Part shown: piece after piece, positions 4,952 to 63,110 of the stretch
Layout of the letters: every line of letters begins with the position of its first letter
Numbering within the stretch: position 1 is the first letter of the stretch
Source of the DNA: an uncultured delta proteobacterium
GTDB lineage: Bacteria; Desulfobacterota; Binatia; JACPRU01
Assembly (NCBI GenBank): GCA_963745025.1
Contig: CAVUWD010000019.1
Location: 160,001 to 224,000 of the forward strand
Reading direction: 5' to 3'
Length of the DNA stretch: 64,000 nt
The notes under the pieces: generated by a model
The model's input: the letters and a program-made list of their open reading frames with translations, nothing else
What the model was told of the DNA's origin: nothing
Databases searched by the model: none
Position numbers and translations under genes: made by a program

Positions 4952-5914
4952 TCAGCGATCGGCATCGTGGTGGCGAAGGCGGAGAGCCGAGAGCCGAAAC
5001 CCGAGGCGGCGAAGAGCGATCGCGAAGTCTTCGGGCACCCGGCTCTCCACGGCGATCCGCTTGCCGGTCTCCGGATGGTCGAACTCGATCCGCCGTGCAT
5101 GCAGAAGATGGCGGCCCTCGGGGATGGGATCGCCCCCGTAGAGCGTGTCGCCGAGCACGGGATGACCGATCGCGGCGAGATGCGCGCGGATCTGATGCAT
5201 GACTCCGGTTGGAAGCTCCACTTCGAGGAACGTCGCATCCGAGCCACGGCCGCGCGGCCGAAAACGGGTGACTGCCGGCCGGGCGCGGCGAGAGGACTCC
5301 CCTTCCTCGAGCACTCGCACCTTACGGCGGTTGCGTGGGTGAGGCTCGATCGCTCGCGTGACCTCGCCGGCGCTCGTCAACGCACCCTGAACGACCGCCA
5401 CGTAGAGCTTGCCGACCTTTCGCTCGCGAAACTGCCGCCGCAGTGCTTTCCACGCTTCGCGCGTCCGGGCCGCGAGCAGCACCCCAGAGGTCTCGGTGTC
5501 GAGCCGATGCACGAGCCCCGCCTCGAGCGGCGTGTCGCCGGCGCTCGAGCAGTCGGGGAAGCGCCCCGTCAGGAAGTTGGCGATCGTGCCGCGCTCGCCC
5601 GATCTGAGCGCGTGGCCCGCACGCCCCGCCGGCTTGTCGAGGGCGACGCAGCTCAAGTCCTCGAACAAAATGGCGATGGGTGGTTCCGGCTCCGCGGGCA
5701 ACGCTGCGATCGCCGAATCGTCCACGGCGACTTCGATGACGCACTCGCCGCGAAGCATCTCCCCCTTCCGTACGCGGCGCCCGTCGATACGAACCGAGCC
5801 GTCCTCGAGGAGGCGCTGGATGCGCTGACGCGAGAAGCCGCTGAGCGATTCGGCGAGCAGGCGGTCGACTCGGGCCGCATAGTCGCTCGGAAGGTGGATG
5901 CGACGCCGGATCAT
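4952..5914 (-). CDS. RluA-family pseudouridine synthase with S4 domain
   Basis: RVDRLL..SRQRIQRLLEDGSVRIDG (S4), DKPAG, VHRLDTETSG (catalytic Asp), TGVMHQIRAHL, HPVLGD. ATGA overlap with rlmD. Confidence 0.9.
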   Translation of the reverse strand: MIRRRIHLPSDYAARVDRLLAESLSGFSRQRIQRLLEDGSVRIDGRRVRKGEMLRGECVIEVAVDDSAIAALPAEPEPPIAILFEDLSCVALDKPAGRAGHALRSGERGTIANFLTGRFPDCSSAGDTPLEAGLVHRLDTETSGVLLAARTREAWKALRRQFRERKVGKLYVAVVQGALTSAGEVTRAIEPHPRNRRKVRVLEEGESSRRARPAVTRFRPRGRGSDATFLEVELPTGVMHQIRAHLAAIGHPVLGDTLYGGDPIPEGRHLLHARRIEFDHPETGKRIAVESRVPEDFAIALRRLGFRLSALRLRHHDADR

Positions 5915-53355: not shown

Positions 53356-53832
53356 TCAGCGCGCGGCGGGCGCCGTGCTGGCGCAGCGAATCGTGAATTG
53401 ATCGCCGTCCGTCGAGTACTGGAGCGGCTTGCCGCTCACCGGATCGAACGGTACCCGATCGACGTACGGCCCGACGAGCTCTGCGAGCGTCGCGGGGGGA
53501 TGGCCATGGTCTGCGACGTAGGCGACGACCTCCCAGTAGGCCCGATTGGTCGCGGCGGTGCAGGTTTTCGGTCGTGAGGCTTGCGCCGCCAGTGGCCTCG
53601 TCGCGACGGCTTGCTTTTGGCGCTCGTAAAGATAGACGAAGAGGGCCGTCTCCAGGGTGATCAGCACCAAGCCGAGGCGGATGAACGTACGAATCGGTCT
53701 CTGCTCGCCGCGTTTGCGTAACTCCTCTTCGGCACGGAGGTCTTCTTCTCTCGCCTGCCGAGCGAGTTGATGGATCGCCTTGCCAAAGTCCGGGGGGAGG
53801 GGGCCACCCGGGGGCGGAGGGGTGAGGCTCAT
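53356..53832 (-). CDS. Single-TM protein with a GspG/pseudopilin-like C-terminal domain
   Basis: One TM helix; Y..DHGHPPATLAELVGPYVDRVPFDPVSGKPLQY resembles the GspG globular domain. Confidence 0.55.
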   Translation of the reverse strand: MSLTPPPPGGPLPPDFGKAIHQLARQAREEDLRAEEELRKRGEQRPIRTFIRLGLVLITLETALFVYLYERQKQAVATRPLAAQASRPKTCTAATNRAYWEVVAYVADHGHPPATLAELVGPYVDRVPFDPVSGKPLQYSTDGDQFTIRCASTAPAAR

Positions 53833-53862
53833 GCCGTCATTGTTCCGTCGGGGCAACATGGA

Positions 53863-54258
53863 TCAGGTGCAGGCGCCGGACGTCACGGCGAAGACGCCGT
53901 TCTCGAGCTTGAAGCAGTCGCCGCCCACCTGATAGGTCTTGATGACGTACTCGTTCGGGGCGGGGAACTCGATCGTTCCGAAGGTGCCCGGAGACGTCTT
54001 TCCTCCCGGAATCGCCGGCTGCCCACCGGTGTCGAGTACAGGGCCGCCGTTGCCGGTGAACGGAGAAATGACGGGTGGCGAGGGTTGGGTCGAGACCATG
54101 TCCACGCCAGGGGCCAGTGCCCGCGCATCGCTCGCCGCGGTCGCGTTCAGTGCCGTGCTCTTGAACAAGCCGAAGTTCGAGAGAGCCAGGGTGGCGAGAA
54201 TTGCGATGATCGCAACCACTAGCAGCAGCTCGACGATCGTGAACCCGGAGTCCTTCAT
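53863..54258 (-). CDS. Type IV pilin-like protein with prepilin cleavage/N-methylation motif
   Basis: GGGAGGGAG RBS; MKDSG|FTIVELLLVVAIIAILATLAL; two C-terminal Cys. Confidence 0.9.
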   Translation of the reverse strand: MKDSGFTIVELLLVVAIIAILATLALSNFGLFKSTALNATAASDARALAPGVDMVSTQPSPPVISPFTGNGGPVLDTGGQPAIPGGKTSPGTFGTIEFPAPNEYVIKTYQVGGDCFKLENGVFAVTSGACT

Positions 54259-54320
54259 GGCTCCCTCCCTGTACCCGTTGGCGCTCAGTGTTCCACACGG
54301 CCCACTCCGCGCGCAAACCC

Positions 54321-54336
54321 AGCAACCGAGATGCCC
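54321..54336 (-). promoter_or_regulatory. Sigma54 (-24/-12) promoter for the pilin gene
   Basis: Minus strand GGGCATCTCGGTTGCT = GG-N10-GC, about 63 nt upstream of the ATG. Confidence 0.6.
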
Positions 54337-54456
54337 ACCGCGAAGCCCACGGTTCCACGGGTGCACGTCACAAGCTCGTTTCGTCTCGAGCCAGGACCTT
54401 GCGACCCGCGAACGATTCTGGTTGTTGTGACGCGACATTCCCCAAGGAGCCGATGA

Positions 54457-54762
54457 ATGGGAACGTTCGTCAAAGTCGCCGAGACCAAGGACCTCGCACC
54501 CGGTGCCGGGAAGACCGTCGAAGTGAACGGGAGGGAAGTAGCGCTCTTCAACGTAGGGGGCTCGTTCTACGCGGTGGACAATACTTGCAAACATCGCGGC
54601 GGCTCTCTCGGCGAAGGCGAGGTCGACGGCGCCGTGGTGACCTGCCCTCTGCACGCCTGGACCTACGATGTGACGACGGGTGAGTGCTTCGACGACCCCG
54701 CCTGCTCGATTGACCGCTTCGCGGTGAAAATCGAGGGCGACGACGTCCTCATCGAGCTGTAA
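54457..54762 (+). CDS. Rieske [2Fe-2S] ferredoxin
   Basis: AAGGAG RBS; CKHRGGSL...CPLHAW.YD..TG. Confidence 0.92.
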   Translation: MGTFVKVAETKDLAPGAGKTVEVNGREVALFNVGGSFYAVDNTCKHRGGSLGEGEVDGAVVTCPLHAWTYDVTTGECFDDPACSIDRFAVKIEGDDVLIEL

Positions 54763-54766
54763 GCCT

Positions 54767-54865
54767 CTGGAACTCTTCGCGACCATGGAGCCCGAAGACC
54801 ACGAGCAGGTGGTCTTCTGCCGCGACCGTTCGACCGGGCTGCGGGCGATCGTAGCCATTCGATGA
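54767..54865 (+). pseudogene. Truncated N-terminus of a Leu/Phe/Val dehydrogenase
   Basis: LELFATMEPEDHEQVVFCRDRSTGLRAIVAIR* matches the LeuDH N-terminus (EQxVFCxDxxxGLxAIIAIH). It stops before the PALGG motif and overlaps the next ATG. Confidence 0.7.
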
Positions 54866-55965
54866 TTCCTCCGAGTCCCTTTGCCGAGCTCGCGCGAGCG
54901 CGCGGAGCCGTATTCCGCGATTACGGGGGTCTCGCGCTCGTCGAGACGTACGGCGATCCGTTGGCGGAATGCACGGCGGTGCGTGCCGGCGCGGGGCTCT
55001 TCGATCTCTCGTTCCGGACGACGCTTCAGTTCACCGGACCAGATCGCACGACGTTTCTCCACAACCTGCTCTCGAACGACATCGCCGCGTTGCGCCCCGG
55101 TACGGGCTGCTATGCGACACTGCTGACGCGCGAGAGCAAGGTGGTGGCCGACGCCAACGTCTTCTGCATGGAAGACAGCATCCGGCTGGACCTGGACCTG
55201 CGAGTGAAAGACCGGGCGCGCGCGCATCTGGAAAAGTTTCTCGTCGCCGACGACGTCGAGATCGAGGACCGAACCGAGTCGGAGACGTCGCTCGGAGTTC
55301 ATGGCCCGCGCTCGAGCGAGATCTTGAGGGCGACGCTCGCCGCCGACGTTCCGGCCGCGGCCCTCCAGCACGTGACGGGAACGATTGCCGGCGCGCCCGT
55401 GCTCGTGGCGCGCGTCGAGTGGACGGGCGATCCGGGGTTCGACGTGACGGTCGCGCGCGCGGAGGGTCCGGCGGTGTGGCTGGCGCTGCTCGCCGCGGGG
55501 GCTCCGCTCGGGCTTCGGCCGGCGGGGATGGCCGCCGCCGAGATCTTGCGTCTCGAGGCCGGCATTCCCTACGTCGACGTCGACTTCGACGAGAGCCACC
55601 TGGTGCTCGAGGCCGGGCTCGAGCGTGGGATCAACTTTCAAAAGGGATGCTATCTCGGGCAGGAGATCGTCGAGCGCGCTTCGGCTCGGGGCCACGTGAA
55701 CAAGCGGCTCGTCGGCCTGCGGATCCACGGGGAGCGGACGCCCGCTCGAGGCGCTCGGATCCTAAAGGACGGAAGCGAGACCGGCCGGGTCACGAGCGCG
55801 GTCTTCTCTCCAAGCCTGCGGGCGCCGATCGCGCTTGGTTACGTGCGGCGCGACGCGATCGCCCCAGGTAGCCGGATCGACGTCGAGATCTCCGGCACGA
55901 CGGCGGTTGCGGAGGTGGTTGCCTTGCCGTTCTACCGCGGCGAAGGCAGAAAGAATCGGACATGA
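54862..55965 (+). CDS. ygfZ: YgfZ/GcvT-family folate-binding protein
   Basis: GLFDLS, GPDR..FLHNLLSND, RLEAGIP, FQKGCYLGQE.V.R..RGHVNKRL. Confidence 0.88.
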   Translation: MIPPSPFAELARARGAVFRDYGGLALVETYGDPLAECTAVRAGAGLFDLSFRTTLQFTGPDRTTFLHNLLSNDIAALRPGTGCYATLLTRESKVVADANVFCMEDSIRLDLDLRVKDRARAHLEKFLVADDVEIEDRTESETSLGVHGPRSSEILRATLAADVPAAALQHVTGTIAGAPVLVARVEWTGDPGFDVTVARAEGPAVWLALLAAGAPLGLRPAGMAAAEILRLEAGIPYVDVDFDESHLVLEAGLERGINFQKGCYLGQEIVERASARGHVNKRLVGLRIHGERTPARGARILKDGSETGRVTSAVFSPSLRAPIALGYVRRDAIAPGSRIDVEISGTTAVAEVVALPFYRGEGRKNRT

Positions 55966-55989
55966 TGTGAGAAATCAGGAGGAAGCCAG

Positions 55990-56130
55990 ATGCCTCAACT
56001 CGGAAAACGGTATGTCTGCGAGAGCTGCGGGACCGAGATTCTCTGCAACAAGCCGGGGACGGGAGCGACGTCCTGCTGCGAGCAGGACATGAAGCTCAAG
56101 GAAGCCAAGCCGCTACCCTCCTCGGATTGA
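55990..56130 (+). CDS. 46-aa desulforedoxin-motif protein with KPLPSSD tail (not in the ORF track)
   Basis: AGGAGG RBS; MPQLGKRYVCESCGTEILCNKPGTGATSCCEQDMKLKEAKPLPSSD; its stop overlaps the TTG of the next gene. Confidence 0.85.
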   Translation: MPQLGKRYVCESCGTEILCNKPGTGATSCCEQDMKLKEAKPLPSSD

Positions 56131-57593
56131 CCGTCAGGCCCTTGAGGGCCGATCTCATTCTCCTCGGCCACGTGTGGACCGGGGACCGAGAGCGCCCGCA
56201 CGCCCGGGCGGTCGCGGTGCTCGGCGCCCGGATCGCCGCCGTCGGCGACGAGGGGGAGATCCTCCGCCTGCGCGGCGCCGCCACGGAGGTGCTCGGCGGC
56301 CGCGACGCCACGATCCTCCCGGGATTCGTCGACGCGCATCTCCATCTCCTCGCCCTCGCGCGGCGCGCCGAGGAGGTCGACTGCTCGAGGGAGAGCGTGC
56401 GCTCGGTGGCGGAGCTCGTCGCGAAGATCCGCGCGGCCGCTGCGTCGCGACCTCCCGGGAGCTGGATCCGCGCGTTCGGTTACGACGAGTTCTTTCTCGA
56501 GGAGAAGCGTCCACCCCGCGTGGCCGATCTCGACGCGGCGGCCCCCGCCCATGCGGTTCGCTTGTTGCACCGCACGGGACACGCCGCCGTGCTCAACACG
56601 GTGGCGTGTCAGAGGCTCGGCATGGCGCCCTGCGAGGTGATCTACGAGCCGGCGGGTCTGTTGCGCGGCCGGATTCCCGCCCCGTCCGCCGCCGAAGCGA
56701 AGAGGCTCGTCGCGGCCGCTTCCGATCGACTGCTCGCCTCGGGCATCACGATGTTCCACGACCCGTCGCCCGGCCAGAGCGCGGCCGACATCGAGCATTT
56801 GCGAGCGTGGGTCGAGGAGGGGACGATCCGCCAGCGGGTGATTGCGCTCGGCGCCAGCACGGGCTTCGAGCCGGGCGACCGAGCCAGTCGATGGTTTCGC
56901 CACGCGGGTGTGAAGATCATGATCGGTGAAGCCGGCGACGCCGACGAGATCGCCGCGCAAGTTGCCGCGGCGGATCGTCGTGGGGCGCAAGTCGCGCTGC
57001 ACGCCGTCGAGGGGGCCGCGCTCGTGGTGGCGATCGAGGCGCTACGCCGGCTCGGTCCGGCCCGCACGCGGGCGCGGCGCCATCGCATCGAGCATGCCGC
57101 GCTTTGTCCGCCGCCGCTCTGCGAGGCGATCGCCGAAAGCGGCGCCGCTGTCGTCACCCACCCGGGCTTCCTTCGCCGCTTTGGGGAGAAATATCGAAGC
57201 GAGCTTCGTCGCGAAGAGGAGGATTGGCTCTATCCCTTACGACGCTTTCTCGATTCTGGAGTTCCGCTCGCGTTCGGGTCCGATGCACCGATTGCCCCGC
57301 CTTCGCCTCTGGACAACGTCAGCGCCGCGCTCTTGCGAGAGAGCGAAGGGGGAGCGCGGCTCGGGCCCTCGCAACGGATTCTCGCGGCCGAAGCGCTGGC
57401 GCTGCACACGCAGGGCGGCGCGTGGGTGGGCGGGCTCGACTCGATCTGCGGGTCGCTGGCGCCGGGCCGGCTCGCCGATCTCGTCGTGGTCGATCGTGAT
57501 CCGCTCGAGGTCCCGCCCGCGGAGATCGCCGCCATCCGGGTCCGGGCGACGGTGATCGAAGGGCGCGTCGTTTGGAGACGTGGCGACGTATGA
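56127..57593 (+). CDS. YtcJ-like metal-dependent amidohydrolase (Amidohydro_3)
   Basis: PGFVDAHLH, H..VLN, ALHAVEG, HRIEHA, FGSDAP, G.LADLVV. Confidence 0.88.
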   Translation: MTVRPLRADLILLGHVWTGDRERPHARAVAVLGARIAAVGDEGEILRLRGAATEVLGGRDATILPGFVDAHLHLLALARRAEEVDCSRESVRSVAELVAKIRAAAASRPPGSWIRAFGYDEFFLEEKRPPRVADLDAAAPAHAVRLLHRTGHAAVLNTVACQRLGMAPCEVIYEPAGLLRGRIPAPSAAEAKRLVAAASDRLLASGITMFHDPSPGQSAADIEHLRAWVEEGTIRQRVIALGASTGFEPGDRASRWFRHAGVKIMIGEAGDADEIAAQVAAADRRGAQVALHAVEGAALVVAIEALRRLGPARTRARRHRIEHAALCPPPLCEAIAESGAAVVTHPGFLRRFGEKYRSELRREEEDWLYPLRRFLDSGVPLAFGSDAPIAPPSPLDNVSAALLRESEGGARLGPSQRILAAEALALHTQGGAWVGGLDSICGSLAPGRLADLVVVDRDPLEVPPAEIAAIRVRATVIEGRVVWRRGDV

Positions 57594-58306
57594 GTGCATT
57601 TCGCACGATCCTCTTCGAACGCCGCGGGCAGGTGGCGTGGGTCACCCTCAACCGTCCCGACGTGCGCAACGCCTACAACACCGAGATGCGCGACGACCTC
57701 CACGCCGCGCTCTCGACCGTTCGAGACGACGAGTCGCTGCGTGCGCTCGTCCTCCGCGGCGCCGGTCCCGCGTTCTGCTCCGGCGGGGACATCCGCGAGT
57801 TCGGATCGGCTCCGTCGCCGGTCGTCGCTCGCGAGGTGCGCTGGCGGCGAGACGTATGGGGGCTCCTCCGCTCGCTGCGCCAGCCGACGATCGCGGCGAT
57901 TCACGGTCACGCCGCCGGCAGCGGCCTCGAGATGGCGCTGCTCTGCGACTTCCGTATCGCCGCAACCGATGCGATTCTTTCGCTGCCCGAGACCGGTCTC
58001 GGCATGATCCCCGGCGTCGTCGGCACGCAGACCGCCCCGCGGGCGATCGGCGTCGGGCGGACGCTCGACCTGGTATTGACCGGCCGGCAGATTGACGCTC
58101 GCGAGGCTCGCCGTGTAGGAGTCGTGGGCTCGGTGGTGTCGTCGGCGCGCCTAGCGGACGAGGCGAACCGGCTGGCGCGCCGGTTGGTGAAGCTCGACGG
58201 AGAGTTGATTTCCCGAGTGAAGAATCTCGTCGTTCGCGGCCTCGATCTACCGCTCACACTGGCGCTTGCTCGAGAGCGTCTCGTCGCAGGGAGAACGAAT
58301 CCATGA
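57590..58306 (+). CDS. Enoyl-CoA hydratase/isomerase (crotonase) family protein
   Basis: LNRP..RNA, AFCSGGD, G.GLEMAL.CD.R, LPETGLG.IPG. Confidence 0.88.
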   Translation: MSAFRTILFERRGQVAWVTLNRPDVRNAYNTEMRDDLHAALSTVRDDESLRALVLRGAGPAFCSGGDIREFGSAPSPVVAREVRWRRDVWGLLRSLRQPTIAAIHGHAAGSGLEMALLCDFRIAATDAILSLPETGLGMIPGVVGTQTAPRAIGVGRTLDLVLTGRQIDAREARRVGVVGSVVSSARLADEANRLARRLVKLDGELISRVKNLVVRGLDLPLTLALARERLVAGRTNP

Positions 58307-59853
58307 ATACCGCAAGCTTTCTCAGCATCCCGGCTTCGATGTTCGGCGACCAGGAGATCCTGGTGTTCGGCCCGCACCGGCGCTGTTACGGAGAGTTGCT
58401 CTCGCGCGTGCGCCGGCTCGCCGCCTCGATGCGGCAGGCGGGCATCGGCAAGGGGGACGTGGTCGCCGCGCTGCAGACGAACTCCGACACGTACCTCGAG
58501 ACGTATTACGCGAGCGCGACCCTGGGCGCCGTCTTCGTTCCGCTCAACTACCGAGCGAAGCCGCCGGAACTCGAATACGCGATCGCGACGGCGAAGACGA
58601 AGATGATCTTCGTCGGTGACCGCTACGCCGACCTGTTCGAAGCGCTTCGGCCGAAGCTGCCGTCGATCGCCTCCATCGTGACATACGAGAGCGGGGATTC
58701 GGGCTGGCTACGCTACGAAGAGCTCCTCGAGAACCAGGAAGAAGTCGAGGATACCGACGTCGAGGAGAGCGACGTCTCGATCCTCATGTACACGAGCGGG
58801 ACGACCAGTCTGCCGAAAGGCGTGCTCCTCACCCACGGCGATTTCACCGCGTACGTCACCAACACCATCGAGCTCGCCGACGGCTCCGACCGGGGCACCG
58901 CGCTCGTTTCCGTGCCATTTTACCACATCGCCGGCACCACGCAGATGATGACCACGATGTGGTCGGGGCGCCGACTGGTGATTCGTCCGCAGTTCCAAGC
59001 GACGGAGTGGCTGGAGACGGTTCAGCGCGAGTCTGTCACGCACGCGATCGTCGTGCCGACGATGCTCAAGCAGATCGTCGACCATCCCGACCTCGAGAAG
59101 TACAATCTGTCGACGCTCACGAATCTCTCGTACGGCGGCGCGCAGATGCCGTTGCCCGTGATTCGCCGCGCGATCGAGCGGCTGCCGAAGACGATCGGCT
59201 TCGTCAACGCCTACGGTCAGACCGAGACCACTTCGACGCTGACGATCCTCGGTCCCGACGATCATCGGCTGGAGGGTTCGCGCGAAGAGGTCGAAAAGAA
59301 GGTGCGCCGCCTGGCCTCGATCGGCAAGCCGCTGCCCGACGTCGAGGTCCGGGTCGTGGACGACGCCGGCAACCCGTTGCCGGCGGGCGAGGTCGGCGAG
59401 ATCGTGGTTCGTACGCCGCGCATGATGAAGGGCTATGCGACCGAGAGCGGCGCCGCGATGAGCCTGCTCGAGGGCGGATGGCTCCGCACCCGCGACATGG
59501 GCTGGGTCGACGAGGACGGCTACATCTATCTCGCGGGCCGCAAGGACGACATGATCATCCGCGGCGGCGAGAACATCGCGCCCGCCGAGGTCGAAGCCGT
59601 GTTGCAGAGTCATCCGGGCGTCGACGACGTCGCGGTGTTCGGCGTGCCGAGCGACGAGTGGGGGCAGATCGTCGCCGCCGCGGTCGTACTCCGGAGCGAA
59701 GGATCTCTCTCGGCGCAGGACCTCGCCGAGTTCTGCAAGCAACGGCTGGCGAGCTTCAAGAAGCCCGAGAAGATCTTGTTCATGCCGGAGCTGCCGCGCA
59801 ATCCGCTCGGCAAGGTGCTCAAGAAAGATCTGAAGCAGCAATTCGGAGACTGA
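58303..59853 (+). CDS. Acyl-CoA synthetase / AMP-dependent ligase (FadD-like)
   Basis: YTSGTTSLPKG, NAYGQTE, WLRTRDMG, GRKDDMIIRGGENI, LPRNPLGKVLK. Confidence 0.93.
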   Translation: MNTASFLSIPASMFGDQEILVFGPHRRCYGELLSRVRRLAASMRQAGIGKGDVVAALQTNSDTYLETYYASATLGAVFVPLNYRAKPPELEYAIATAKTKMIFVGDRYADLFEALRPKLPSIASIVTYESGDSGWLRYEELLENQEEVEDTDVEESDVSILMYTSGTTSLPKGVLLTHGDFTAYVTNTIELADGSDRGTALVSVPFYHIAGTTQMMTTMWSGRRLVIRPQFQATEWLETVQRESVTHAIVVPTMLKQIVDHPDLEKYNLSTLTNLSYGGAQMPLPVIRRAIERLPKTIGFVNAYGQTETTSTLTILGPDDHRLEGSREEVEKKVRRLASIGKPLPDVEVRVVDDAGNPLPAGEVGEIVVRTPRMMKGYATESGAAMSLLEGGWLRTRDMGWVDEDGYIYLAGRKDDMIIRGGENIAPAEVEAVLQSHPGVDDVAVFGVPSDEWGQIVAAAVVLRSEGSLSAQDLAEFCKQRLASFKKPEKILFMPELPRNPLGKVLKKDLKQQFGD

Positions 59854-60605
59854 TGGCGCGACGCAGCCGAGCGGTGACGTTCGACCGGCGAGGGCATCTC
59901 GCCGAGCTGGTCCTGGACCTCCGCGAGAGCGGGGGCCGCTTCACGCCCGAGTCCGCCGTGGCGTTCTCGGAGGCCTGCACTCGATGCGACGACGAAGAGG
60001 TCTGGGTGGTGCTGTTGCGTTCGGCGGCTCCCGACCTCTGCATCGGCCTCGAGGGCCGGTTCTCCGATTGGCCGCGGGTCTCGGGCACCGACTTCGTGAC
60101 CTCGCTGGCGTCGATCCGCCAGCCGGTTGTGCTTGCCGTGCGGCGTCGCGCCGAGGCCGAAGGCTTCGAGTTCGCGCTGGCCGCCGATCTCCGCGTCGTC
60201 GAGCCGCGGACCCGGTTCTTGATGCCGCAGGTGGCGGCCGGGACCCTGCCGGGCTTCGGCGGCACCCAGCGCCTGCCCCGACTCGTCGGGGTCGAGCGAA
60301 CGCTGCGCGCGCTGCTACTCGGCGAGCCGATCTCGGGCAGGAAGGCGGTCGAGTGGGGACTCGCGACGCGCCTCGAGGCACGTGCCGATCGCGCGGCGCT
60401 CCGGCTCGCGAAGACGCTTCTCGAGCGTGGTCCACTCTCCCTCCGTTTTGCGAAGGAAGCCGTACGCCGCTCGTTGGATCTCGCTCTTGACGACGGTGCG
60501 CGTTTCGAGCACGACCTCTACGTGTTGCTCGAGACGACGCGCGACCGCGCCGAGGGAGTCGACGCGTTTCTCGGCAAGCGAAAACCGAAATTTCGAGGAC
60601 AATAG
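59853..60605 (+). CDS. Divergent enoyl-CoA hydratase/isomerase family protein
   Basis: GFEFALAADLR, PGFGGTQRLPRLVG, DRAEGVDAFLGKRKPKFRG; TGATG coupling with the upstream gene. Confidence 0.85.
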   Translation: MARRSRAVTFDRRGHLAELVLDLRESGGRFTPESAVAFSEACTRCDDEEVWVVLLRSAAPDLCIGLEGRFSDWPRVSGTDFVTSLASIRQPVVLAVRRRAEAEGFEFALAADLRVVEPRTRFLMPQVAAGTLPGFGGTQRLPRLVGVERTLRALLLGEPISGRKAVEWGLATRLEARADRAALRLAKTLLERGPLSLRFAKEAVRRSLDLALDDGARFEHDLYVLLETTRDRAEGVDAFLGKRKPKFRGQ

Positions 60606-60615
60606 GAGACCGGTG

Positions 60616-60735
60616 ATGCCGAACCAGCTGGGAAAGATGTACGTCTGCGCGAAGTGTGGAGCTCAAGTGATCGTCACCAAGGCGGGCAGCGGCTCGCTCC
60701 AGTGCTGTGGTCAGCCGATGGAGCAAAAGAAGTAG
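60616..60735 (+). CDS. 39-aa desulforedoxin-motif protein
   Basis: AGGAG RBS; MPNQLGKMYVCAKCGAQVIVTKAGSGSLQCCGQPMEQKK (CxxC-x15-CC). Confidence 0.85.
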   Translation: MPNQLGKMYVCAKCGAQVIVTKAGSGSLQCCGQPMEQKK

Positions 60736-61326
60736 ATGGCCCGCCTTCGGCCGCTCGAGGGGCGTGACGCAGGGCTCGTCACGAGGGCCGTTCAGGCTGT
60801 CTTCCGCCTCGCTCTCGGCCGCGAACTCAACCCGTACAAGCTGGAAGCGTATGCGCCGCGCACGGTGCTCGCGTCGTTTCTGTCGAACACCCTGATGACG
60901 ACCGGGCGTTGGGCGCTGGCGGGGGATTTCCGGCAGATGATCCGCGTCCGCGTCGCGGCGCTCAACGGATGCCCGTTCTGAATGGACATCAACGCCGCCG
61001 TGGGCGGCCAGCGCGGGCTGCCTCAGGAGAAGATCGATGCGGCGCTCGGCGTGCGCTCGGCCGACGCGGCCGGCCTTTCGAGCCGCGAGCGACTCGCCCT
61101 CGAATACAGCGATCGGGTGAGCGCCACGCCGGTCGACGTCCCCGACGACTTCTTCGCGCGACTCGCCGCCGAGTTCTCGGAACGAGAGATCGTCGAGCTA
61201 ACCGCTACGATCGCCCACGAGAACTACAATTCCAAGTTCAATCGGCCACTGCGGATCGAAGCGAACAACTTCTGCCAGATCCCTCTGCCGACGCCGGAAG
61301 AGCTGGCGGCAAGGAGAGCCGGATGA
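60736..61326 (+). CDS. AhpD/carboxymuconolactone-decarboxylase-family protein with in-frame UGA (putative selenoprotein, CxxU)
   Basis: ORFs 60736-60981 and 60982-61326 share a frame. The joined product reads ...RVAALNGCPF-U-MDIN...ERLALEY.D...FSEREIVELT..IA.EN..SKFN..L. Confidence 0.85.
60982..61012 (+). promoter_or_regulatory. Putative bacterial SECIS hairpin
   Basis: GCCGCC-GUG-GGCGGC stem-loop starting 12 nt after the UGA, with the apical G(U) 19 nt downstream. Confidence 0.55.
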
Positions 61327-61570
61327 ACGACCGCGAGGCGATCCGCGAGGAACTGGACGAGAGATCCTCGCGACGCACGAGCGCTTCTCGAGAGCATTTC
61401 GACCCGGTTGCCGCTGATGGATCTCGACCAACGCGAGCGATATCTGACGCTGGTTTCCCTGCAGGTCACGAAGATCGAGCGAATCGAAACGCCGCTTCGA
61501 CTGGCGCTTCGCGAAACGGCTGCCGAAGTCCCGCCGATCCTGATGCAGGAGCTTTCCGGCGGCCGAGGAC
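61323..61570 (+). CDS. Small hypothetical protein (probably frameshifted; end uncertain)
   Basis: AGGAG RBS and ATGA overlap; MNDREAIREELDE.. continues in another frame as ..LPLMDLDQRERYLTLVSLQVTKIERIE. Confidence 0.3.
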
Positions 61571-62248
61571 TCAGGCGAGGAGTTCCTCGAGCGCTCGCCA
61601 GTCGACCGCGGCGTAGGAAGGATAGACGCGGTCGGCATCGCGGAGCGCTTCGGCGGGAAACGAGTGCGGCAGCGCCACGACGCGGATCCCGGCGGCTCGG
61701 GCGGCAGTGATCCCTTTCGGAGCGTCCTCGACGGCGAGGCACTGGCGCGCGTCGAGGTCGCGGAGCGCTCCGCGGCGCAGCCGCGCGACGGCCAGGCGGT
61801 AGCCCTCCGGATCGGGCTTCCCCGCCCGCACGTCCTCGGCACTGACGATCAGCGGAAAGAAGCGCTCGAGGCCGGACCGAGCGAGAACCGAAGTGATCTC
61901 GTTCCGAAGCGCGCCGCTGACGATCATGAGCGCCGCGCGCTCGGCCGCGGCGGCGACGAATCCTTCGACGCCGGGACAGAGCGGCACGCCGCGAGCGAGC
62001 CGTACGGCCATCGCGGCGCTCTTCTCTCGGACGAGCCCCGCGACGTCGTCTCGAAGATCGGGGCGTTCGAAGTCTTCGACCATGCGCCTGACGCATTCCC
62101 GATCCGTGAGCGCCAGGTAGCGCTCGTAGTAGATGGGTTCGGCGAGCACGATGCCGCGTCTTGCCAGGACTTCGGCGAAGGCGGCGTAGTGAAGCGGCTC
62201 GCTGAGCGCGATGGTGCCGTCGAAATCGAAGAGAATCGCGCGAAGCAT
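61571..62248 (-). CDS. HAD-family phosphatase (CbbY/beta-PGM-like)
   Basis: FDFDGTIALSEPLH, GKPDPEGY, VEDAP.GI.AA..AG. Confidence 0.9.
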   Translation of the reverse strand: MLRAILFDFDGTIALSEPLHYAAFAEVLARRGIVLAEPIYYERYLALTDRECVRRMVEDFERPDLRDDVAGLVREKSAAMAVRLARGVPLCPGVEGFVAAAAERAALMIVSGALRNEITSVLARSGLERFFPLIVSAEDVRAGKPDPEGYRLAVARLRRGALRDLDARQCLAVEDAPKGITAARAAGIRVVALPHSFPAEALRDADRVYPSYAAVDWRALEELLA

Positions 62249-62304
62249 CGTCTGTTGACTTTCGGACGCCGACTCTGAACTGTCGGCCCGAGGGCGAACC
62301 AGAG

Positions 62305-62649
62305 ATGAACGACGATTGCGTGTTCTGCAAGATCGTCACGGGAGCGATTCCCGCGAAGTTCGTGCACCAGGAGGACGAGCTGGTGGCGATCGAGGACCTC
62401 CATCCTCAGGCGCCCACGCACCTGCTCGTGATCCCCAAACGCCACATCCCCACGGTGCTCGACCTGAAGCCCGAGCACGCGCGGCTGCTCGGGCGGATCT
62501 TCGAGACCGCGAATCGGCTGGCGCTCGATCGCACGCTCGAAGGTGGGTTCCGCGTCGTCGTCAACAATGGACCGGGCGGCGGTCAAACCGTCTATCACCT
62601 CCACTTCCATCTACTCGGTGGCCGACCAATGCGGTGGCCGCCGGGGTGA
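62305..62649 (+). CDS. hinT: Histidine triad nucleotide-binding protein (HinT)
   Basis: DCVFCKI, PQAP.H.LVIPKRH, GQTVYHLHFHLLGGR...WPPG. Confidence 0.92.
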   Translation: MNDDCVFCKIVTGAIPAKFVHQEDELVAIEDLHPQAPTHLLVIPKRHIPTVLDLKPEHARLLGRIFETANRLALDRTLEGGFRVVVNNGPGGGQTVYHLHFHLLGGRPMRWPPG

Positions 62650-63110
62650 AGGTGAAGAAGAAGCAGGACGTCCGGCCCGAGGTCATCGTCTATACCGACG
62701 GGGCGTGCTCCGGAAATCCCGGACCCGGAGGATGGGCCGCGGTGCTCCGCTACGGCGATCACGAGCGCGAGATCTCCGGCGGCGAGTCGCACACGACGAA
62801 CCAAAAGATGGAGCTCACCGCGGCCATCGAGGCGCTGCGTGCCCTCGGGCGCCCCTGTCGCGTGCGCCTGCACAGCGATAGCGCCTACCTGGTGAACTGC
62901 TTCCGGCAACGCTGGCACGAGACGTGGATTCGCAACGGCTGGATGAGCCGCAACAAGACGCCGGTCACCAACCGCACGCTTTGGGAGGAGCTCATCCGCC
63001 TCGCCGAGATTCACGATGTCGAGTGGATCAAAGTGGCCGGCCATTCGGGTGATCCGCTGAACGAGCGTTGCGACGCGCTCGCCCGCGCCGAGATCGAGCG
63101 CGTCGCATGA
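62646..63110 (+). CDS. rnhA: Ribonuclease HI
   Basis: YTDGACSGNPGPGGW, TTNQKMEL.A, SDS.Y, V.N..LW, GHSG...NERCD.LA. Confidence 0.95.
   Translation: MKVKKKQDVRPEVIVYTDGACSGNPGPGGWAAVLRYGDHEREISGGESHTTNQKMELTAAIEALRALGRPCRVRLHSDSAYLVNCFRQRWHETWIRNGWMSRNKTPVTNRTLWEELIRLAEIHDVEWIKVAGHSGDPLNERCDALARAEIERVA

Follow-up and report, generated by a model that had tools for sequence, protein, structure and literature searches.

Why would a gene cluster of acyl-coenzyme A (acyl-CoA) metabolism contain two very small proteins with the cysteine motif of desulforedoxin, the textbook iron-sulfur electron-transfer fold of anaerobes? The question is raised by a 64,000-nucleotide stretch of the genome of an uncultured delta proteobacterium of the class Binatia (contig CAVUWD010000019.1 of assembly GCA_963745025.1, positions 160,001 to 224,000), hereafter the window, whose own positions serve as coordinates below. 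Seven consecutive genes, all on the + strand, encode the mini-protein Dx1 (46 amino acids, 55990-56130), an amidohydrolase, the crotonase ECH1, an acyl-CoA ligase of the ANL type, a second crotonase termed ECH2, the mini-protein Dx2 (39 amino acids, 60616-60735) and a putative AhpD-like selenoprotein. The answer that we favour, with a probability of about one half, is that Dx1 and Dx2 are the two parts of a non-redox accessory subunit of the pathway of this ligase, which would act through a short tail at the C-terminus of Dx1.

The seven genes, their overlaps, both desulforedoxin motifs and an in-frame TGA are all located where the initial annotation of the window had put them, and its view of the mini-proteins as paralogous desulforedoxin-domain proteins was borne out by scores of 27.1 bits (Dx1) and 38.7 bits (Dx2) with PF06397, for which the Pfam cut-off is 23 bits, and by an exact CxxC-x15-CC spacing in both. 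Dx2 also reaches 35.5 bits with TIGR00319, just below the cut-off of 36.05, and no PF06397 match above cut-off besides Dx1 and Dx2 was found in the own genome. Dx1 and Dx2 are real genes under protein-level selection. The same pair recurs on one strand, 3.3-8.8 kb apart, in relatives, and the invariant residues of Dx1 are encoded by varying synonymous codons (two to six per position in 33 of 33 copies), which places the mini-gene pair far beyond chance. The cysteine spacing is kept in 33/33 Dx1 copies, and equally invariant in these 33 is the C-terminus K-E-A-K-P-L-P-S-S-D followed by the stop codon, an ending of a type shared by no other open reading frame (ORF) of the own genome. Dx2 ends in EQKK in the window and in (E/Q)QKK in relatives. 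Identity of Dx1 to the window copy is 76-89% in 12 aligned relatives and 68-89% among the tblastn matches listed, to be compared with about 60% for the ligase, 55% for ECH1, 40% for ECH2 and the product of the upstream GcvT-like gene and 35% for the amidohydrolase. The ATG of Dx1 is preceded by AGGAGG at 7 nt.

Beyond the close relatives, the family is large and unannotated. A profile built from 13 Dx1 sequences retrieved 958 matches at E <= 0.001 (138 at E <= 1e-10) among 1.84 billion representative proteins, the acidic tail motif being recognized by pattern at the C-terminus of 109 of the best 150 matches, and a relative of Dx1 is encoded by 531 stretches of species-representative genomes. 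No Dx1 fused to an enzyme was found, the nine proteins that emerged from a search for longer homologues being mis-started Dx1 or two-half fusions (see below), and the long frames that surround Dx1 and Dx2 in high-GC loci lie out of frame with the neighbouring enzymes. Mini-genes of 39-47 codons are easily missed by gene callers, and homology would mislead toward oxygen defence or anaerobic electron transfer. Literature searches returned no description of an association of desulforedoxin with CoA-ligase clusters or of the Dx1 tail, and the main text of the Binatota genome paper (PMC8262859) contains no occurrence of 'enoyl-CoA hydratase', 'acyl-CoA synthetase', 'selen' or 'superoxide'.

Which of the surrounding genes belong with the mini-proteins was deduced from 61 Binatia genomes, i.e. 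that of the window and 60 relatives (seven of the same family and 53 of the same class). A search with Dx2 gave matches in 39/61 genomes, nearly all of them two matches on one strand at the spacing given above, and alignment of the window's proteins to 40 regions revealed an order that recurs across many families of the class: GcvT-like, Dx1, [amidohydrolase], ECH1, ligase, ECH2, Dx2. The conserved core consists of GcvT-like, Dx1, ECH1, ligase, ECH2 and Dx2, and starts in the window at the gene of a GcvT-like folate-binding protein (54862-55965, + strand, 367 amino acids; GCV_T 179 bits, GCV_T_C 73.9 bits). The other core enzymes are ECH1 (57590-58306, 238 amino acids, or 244 if translation starts at the TTG at 57572; ECH_1 170.5 bits), the ligase (58303-59853, 516 amino acids; AMP-binding PF00501 279.5 bits, AMP-binding_C PF13193 75.2 bits) and ECH2 (59853-60605, 250 amino acids; ECH_1 103 bits). 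In all the related loci listed the GcvT-like gene is directly upstream of Dx1, and in every one of those with a split pair Dx2 directly follows ECH2. A gene for a Rieske-type [2Fe-2S] ferredoxin (54457-54762 in the window, + strand, 101 amino acids; PF00355 79 bits) precedes the GcvT-like gene in many loci (e.g. L035, L036, L039, L042, L045, L049, L055, L057 and L060), not in all. The Amidohydro_3 (YtcJ-like) hydrolase (56127-57593, 488 amino acids; PF07969 233.7 bits) is an optional member, absent for example from L040, L048, L054, L062, L159 and L160, and the AhpD-like gene is part of the cassette only in five loci of the window's own family, among the matches listed. The operon as initially drawn therefore stands in part: the crotonases, the ligase and the mini-proteins are conserved together, but the amidohydrolase and the selenoprotein fall outside the core and the GcvT-like gene upstream falls inside it. 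With the amidohydrolase missing from several otherwise complete cassettes, the 'amide-hydrolysis' pathway that had been proposed loses its frame, and the selenoprotein marks the end of the operon in a single family only. That annotation had included neither the invariant Dx1 tail, nor the upstream GcvT-like gene, nor the idea that the mini-proteins are halves of one module. In one relative (L039:4147-5693, genome G006), the cassette ligase is in two abutting pieces, residues 1-196 and 197-514, that meet at about position 5106, which reflects a frameshift or an assembly error.

The tie between the mini-proteins and the ligase/crotonase cluster, also claimed initially, held when it was followed by tblastn and by gene neighbourhoods. 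A ligase orthologue (56-100% identity) is present in 40/61 genomes, and the mini-proteins, split or fused, are found in 40/40 of these. Of the 21 genomes without a ligase orthologue, 20 gave no mini-protein with the Dx2 query, and in the remaining one, G058, a fused form is located directly upstream of a ligase paralogue with 37% identity.

Naturally fused forms are the key to the nature of the module. In seven genomes (G015, G019, G028, G035, G044, G051 and G059), there is no split pair but instead one protein of 96-98 residues in which a Dx2-like half is joined by a linker to a Dx1-like half, an order of halves that is the same in all fusions seen. Dx1 and Dx2 are thus most likely the halves of one module, a predicted heterodimer, since Dx2-Dx1 fusions replace the pair. 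The seven Binatia fusions have other residues in place of all eight cysteines but retain the tail and the LGK(I/R)Y starts; neither Pfam nor NCBIfam recognizes any family in these cysteine-less proteins. Among the representative proteins there are also fusions with all eight cysteines (e.g. P0010) or with only some of them. The fusion occupies the Dx1 slot in G035 (Rieske, GcvT-like, fusion, ECH1, ligase, ECH2), with no gene of the module after ECH2. In G015, G028, G044 and G051, the cassette lacks mini-genes and the fusion is elsewhere, and in G019 and G059 the GcvT-like, ECH1 and ECH2 genes are together, the ligase and the fusion being at two other places.

An AlphaFold2 model of the G035 fusion, which is a cysteine-less fused relative and not the window's own Dx1 and Dx2, shows two beta repeats with a mean predicted local distance difference test score (pLDDT) of 94.1 and a predicted template modelling score of 0.82, the tail having a pLDDT of 62. 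When this model was compared with solved structures by VIA-align, the top row was desulforedoxin 1cfw, 36/36 residues of which overlay model residues 53-88, in the C-terminal half, with a root-mean-square deviation of 1.1 Å and a Z of 3.7, a value that is low, as one would expect of so short a chain. Foldseek found no match in the PDB at E <= 0.001 with the same model.

These proteins bear directly on the function that the fold would suggest. In a classical redox role, Dx1 and Dx2 would be Fe(Cys)4 electron carriers for the Rieske ferredoxin, for the AhpD-like selenoprotein or for an unseen oxidoreductase, which would be in keeping with two mini-proteins that pass the desulforedoxin model with exact cysteine spacing, with the Rieske gene upstream and, in the window's family, with a thiol/selenol redox protein downstream. 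However, seven genomes make do with proteins in which none of the eight cysteines is left, the cassette comprises no oxidoreductase and the selenoprotein is confined to one family. Moreover, the superoxide reductase setting that would have spoken against the initial reading did not materialize: the mini-proteins end after the desulforedoxin domain, with no C-terminal superoxide reductase domain (PF01880), and the own genome, at a completeness of 92.65%, gave no match to PF01880 either. Electron transfer is disfavoured because the natural fusions that lack all eight cysteines keep the tail, and this loss argues strongly against the electron-carrier role that had initially been left open; we regard it as highly improbable. 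The metal is probably structural and dispensable, and the function would reside in the conserved surface and the tail.

Several features set the pair apart from the known proteins of this family. Desulforedoxin of Desulfovibrio gigas (1cfw/1dxg) and the N-terminal domain of desulfoferrodoxin belong to the same PF06397 family and have the same CxxC-x15-CC spacing. Desulforedoxin is a small beta protein that forms a homodimer, whereas here there are two distinct paralogous halves, which carry a family-specific LGK(R/I)Y start and, in Dx1, the invariant acidic tail. The setting is different as well, namely an acyl-CoA cluster in Binatia of aerobic type where no superoxide reductase domain was found, and the natural variants without cysteines indicate that the metal centre is dispensable.

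The same fusions have suggested to us a metal-linked regulator or metallochaperone, in which the Cys4 sites would act as sensors or donors of Fe or Zn and thereby turn the pathway on or off, the cysteine-less forms being freed from this control. A cysteine-less fusion adjoins Peripla_BP_2, ABC_tran and FecCD genes in two genomes of one genus (L070:3416-6501 and L072:420-3688), and in a third locus (L071:1657-7513) a FUR-family regulator, an ABC-3 permease and its ATPase lie within about 1.6 kb of the fusion, neighbours that may reflect a metal-sparing logic. In addition, the GcvT-like protein passes the model of the YgfZ/CAF17 Fe-S assembly-factor domain. Such neighbours are nevertheless restricted to three loci of two genera, there being no metal-uptake genes beside the fusion in L073 and L074, and what is invariant in the family is the tail and not the metal site, which makes a role of this kind very unlikely.

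Evidence linking the module to the ligase came from an independent lineage with a second fused subtype, type B, which was uncovered by the search for longer homologues. About 102 residues long, this subtype shares the tail but diverges in its N-terminal half. A metagenome scan detected 473 type-B loci, of which 80 were examined, and in 59 of these 80 the mini-gene is followed by 500 nt or more. A paralogue of the window's ligase (29-41% identity) starts 1-87 nt after the type-B mini-gene in 39/59 loci. Among the others, the ligase alignment starts later in two, a ligase is on the other strand within a few kb in four and an ECH1-like gene is convergent just downstream in three; the remaining loci have none of these in view. 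The ligase of type-B loci is usually followed by an ECH1-like crotonase, an Amidohydro_3 gene is near the cassette in five loci (L181, L184, L187, L217 and L221), and tblastn detected no GcvT-like gene.

A quick maximum-likelihood tree was built for the window's ligase and 18 out of 38 full-length cassette ligases from Binatia, together with 25 type-B neighbours and every long ANL paralogue encoded in the own genome (16 in number). The 19 Binatia cassette ligases and 23/25 type-B ligases form one clade, with a support of 99 in the Shimodaira-Hasegawa-like approximate likelihood ratio test, from which all 16 paralogues are excluded; the two type-B ligases outside it are opposite-strand ligases. 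Eighteen positions are invariant in the clade and rare in the paralogues, and most of these are between residues 184 and 321, which we take to be the acyl-pocket region. At the level of gene sequences, the putative module is demonstrably co-inherited with one ANL ligase clade and a predicted active crotonase, and tolerates both fusion and loss of the metal ligands. The crotonase that comes after the ligase in type-B loci is itself unusual. In L184 (7815-8864) and in matching stretches of L179, L236, L242, L188, L221 and L200, it is about 345 amino acids long and carries at its N-terminus a conserved extension, some 165 residues in length, that belongs to no Pfam family, its ECH_1 match stopping at profile position 178. 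In L184, where the GC content is about 70%, the gene has CoA-transferase family III genes and an aldehyde dehydrogenase as flanking neighbours.

In the mechanism that we propose, Dx1 and Dx2 would form one module of desulforedoxin fold, Dx2 being its tail-less half and Dx1 the half that bears a flexible acidic tail, and the four-cysteine sites would hold a structural metal, either Fe or Zn. With neither a catalytic nor a redox function of its own, this module would serve a conserved acyl-CoA pathway as a dedicated and obligatory accessory or scaffold subunit. The constant enzymes of that pathway appear to be one ANL acyl-CoA ligase clade and the presumably active crotonase ECH1. The pseudo-crotonase ECH2 and the GcvT-like protein would be additions of the Binatia, and the amidohydrolase and the AhpD-like selenoprotein additions of particular lineages. 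The working part would be the surface of the fold together with the tail, which would most likely dock on the ligase or on a ligase-hydratase complex, much as MbtH-like proteins serve adenylation domains, by analogy and not by homology. That the halves form a heterodimer, that the ligase is bound by it and that the tail has a function in this is what we infer from the comparisons above.

The analogy with MbtH-like proteins is a working one. MbtH-like proteins are small partners of adenylation domains from the same ANL superfamily, and they and the mini-proteins alike are tiny, strongly conserved and apparently non-catalytic, with a gene next to that of an adenylating enzyme and an inheritance shared with one clade of enzymes. 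The likeness would be functional, there being no relation in sequence or fold: in Pfam scans, neither the mini-proteins nor the fusions matched an MbtH family. The mini-protein is also in two parts, would bind metal in most lineages and has a C-terminal tail, and its putative partner is a stand-alone acyl-CoA ligase rather than a domain of a non-ribosomal peptide synthetase. The DUF35/zinc-ribbon scaffolds of thiolase-type complexes, small structural connectors that are encoded in clusters of CoA-ester metabolism, offer another parallel, in that a small protein of zinc-ribbon type encoded in a CoA-ester cluster may act as a connector here too. However, the fold is different and has no OB domain, and the enzymes here are a ligase and a crotonase. 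In this family the desulforedoxin fold comes as two paralogous halves, goes with one acyl-CoA ligase clade and has in some lineages shed its metal ligands but not the tail, so that the module may represent a novel class of small enzyme partners, with MbtH-like proteins as its conceptual counterpart. The cassette also marks a conserved pathway in the uncultured class Binatia.

The invariance of the tail can be read in another way, as that of a carrier or scaffold protein. The ligase would attach an acyl or amino-acyl group to it, at a lysine of KEAK or at the C-terminal Asp, the bound intermediate would undergo the chemistry and the amidohydrolase would then release it. LysW amino-group carrier proteins and the small scaffold peptides of pearlin pathways are parallels for such an arrangement. 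A tail that is invariant, predicted to be flexible and able to survive loss of the metal site would fit it, as would an adenylating enzyme as the constant neighbour, an amidohydrolase that recurs in both types of cassette and a tail ending that is unique among the ORFs of the own genome. Nevertheless, the amidohydrolase is not always there, the score of the ligase is above the cut-off of an ordinary acyl-CoA ligase model, ligases of the ATP-grasp or tRNA-dependent kind are absent from the cassette, the substrates of crotonases are CoA thioesters and no ANL enzyme is known to us to charge the tail of a protein, all of which render this reading quite unlikely. LysW itself is defined by an ATP-grasp ligase partner and by a C-terminal glutamate acceptor, whereas there is no ATP-grasp enzyme in this cassette and Dx1 terminates with an Asp after Ser-Ser. 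The bolder version, in which Dx1 is a new protein carrier whose tail is charged by the ligase with a small acid or amino acid that is processed while tethered and then released by the amidohydrolase or a crotonase-fold protein, is in our eyes distinctly doubtful. If true, it would represent a protein-templated small-molecule pathway like those of the LysW and pearlin scaffolds, but with a metal-knuckle fold and an adenylate-forming ligase as its basis.

Returning to the accessory subunit, several points weigh against the ligase as its direct partner. This assignment rests on gene order and phylogeny, and the tree was made by a quick method with outgroups from one genome only. The co-occurrence counts are not independent, because the genomes are kin, and the 20 ligase-less genomes other than G058 were searched with the Dx2 query only, which had failed to detect the fusions in G035 and G059. 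Only one of the seven cysteine-less proteins, that of G035, is in the cassette, and three of the other six are near the metal-uptake genes described above, which could hint at a part in metal physiology. Finally, neither mini-gene adjoins the ligase in Binatia, so that the GcvT-like protein or ECH2 could be the partner instead.

This last point leads to a module that would scaffold the crotonase pair ECH1/ECH2 or the GcvT-like protein and not the ligase. Always, Dx2 comes directly after ECH2 and Dx1 directly after the GcvT-like gene; many type-B loci have an ECH1-like gene after the ligase; and ECH2 may be a structural partner because the full catalytic pair is absent from 40/40 of its orthologues. 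There are precedents on both sides, the crotonase-fold carboxyltransferase AccD having a zinc ribbon and heterotetrameric sarcosine oxidase a zinc-binding delta subunit along with a GcvT-like domain. The type-B loci speak for the ligase, however: no GcvT-like gene was detected in them, and the ligase is the nearest gene to the mini-protein in the 39 of 59 loci mentioned above. In G019 and G059, furthermore, GcvT-ECH1-ECH2 are together without an adjoining mini-protein. We consider it unlikely that the crotonases or the GcvT-like protein are scaffolded in place of the ligase.

What the pathway does can be approached through its enzymes. The ligase passes NF004837, an ordinary acyl-CoA ligase model, with 483.8 bits for a cut-off of 476, its nearest solved structures are fatty-acyl/feruloyl-CoA synthetases, and the motifs TSGTTSLPKG, YGQTE and PLGK are visible in its translation. 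The nearest solved relative of ECH1 is 3-hydroxypropionyl-CoA dehydratase 5zai (E 1.3e-52). The positions of the catalytic glutamates in the two crotonases are those of rat enoyl-CoA hydratase, which we assume to apply here. In ECH1, both are aligned with those of 5zai and are kept in 41/41 orthologues, and a GGD(I/L/V)xEF motif is present, which suggests an active crotonase. ECH2 had been described as degenerate, and it is: its ECH_1 match starts only at residue 71 and covers residues 71-250, its N-terminal oxyanion motif of the GGDxxEF type is absent and the two glutamates occur together in 0/40 orthologues, the second being Gln in 29 and Glu in three that lack the first. It is probably a non-catalytic partner, i.e. 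a pseudo-crotonase. The GcvT-like protein scores below the GcvT cut-offs (223 against 300 bits for NF001567 and 168 against 235.85 bits for TIGR00528) and passes only the YgfZ/CAF17 domain model TIGR03317 (77.5 against 49 bits). Our guess is that the substrate is a short, beta-functionalised acid. The combination of a GcvT-family protein with a ligase and a crotonase is reminiscent of dimethylsulfoniopropionate demethylation, a reading that was rejected, the DmdA model giving 83 bits for a cut-off of 410 and the cassette being devoid of an acyl-CoA dehydrogenase.

The last gene of the window's cluster (60736-61326, + strand) encodes an AhpD/CMD-like protein of 196 amino acids (CMD 32.3 bits with the TGA translated as selenocysteine), in which an in-frame TGA at 60979-60981 would be read as selenocysteine in a C-P-F-U motif. 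The TGA is at the same codon in 5/5 loci of the own family. The organism is a user of selenocysteine, because the own genome contains selA (571 bits) and selB (397 bits), adjacent on contig C20 (21768-25012), and a tRNA-Sec at C15:65252-65346; it may encode further selenoproteins. A candidate hairpin for a selenocysteine insertion sequence, GCCGCC-GUG-GGCGGC at 60994-61008 (+ strand), begins 12 nt after the TGA and is part of a predicted fold that is no stabler than those of shuffled sequences (z 0.39, 117/200 shuffles at least as stable). The stretch of this hairpin also encodes a conserved NAAVGG. The protein shares the CMD domain and the CxxU motif with the AhpD/CMD-family selenoproteins modelled by NF053654, the 'YciW-related (seleno)protein', and matches this model in part, but its 110.2 bits are below the cut-off of 310, so that it is not a member of that equivalog, and it is a member of the cassette only in the window's family. 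It is likely a selenoprotein, and a family-specific add-on rather than a core member.

As for the organization of the locus, the Dx1/amidohydrolase, amidohydrolase/ECH1 and ECH1/ligase junctions are 4-nt overlaps, the ligase and ECH2 overlap by 1 nt, ECH2 and Dx2 are separated by 10 nt and Dx2 directly abuts the AhpD-like gene (0 nt). A scan of 53800-62400 found promoter-like and terminator-like sites at about the numbers expected (1 against 0.5 and 4 against 4.4, respectively). In a soil RNA-library run (X20, one oligo-dT run, contigs only), short contig pieces with 90-99% identity cover the junctions at 55829-56081, 57542-57787, 59800-60005 and 60703-60957 and span the TGA of the selenoprotein gene (60908-61084). 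Relatives or carry-over of DNA may be the source of these contigs, which are not counted as proof of transcription. The depth of metagenome contigs rises about 100-fold at 59314-59781 (169 and 1322 in run X1, against about 10-30 elsewhere), because the conserved C-terminal core of the ligase gathers contigs from the ANL enzymes of other organisms; it is no feature of this genome.

On either side of the cassette there are genes of other kinds. Downstream, at 61571-63110, a HAD-family hydrolase on the minus strand is followed by a HIT-family protein and then by a ribonuclease-H-like ORF, as recognized by eye from the translation, and none of the three accompanies the cassette beyond the own family. 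On the other side, shortly before the Rieske gene, a long minus-strand frame (53863-54360) contains a type IV pilin-like N-terminus, G-F-T-I-V-E-L-L and a hydrophobic helix.

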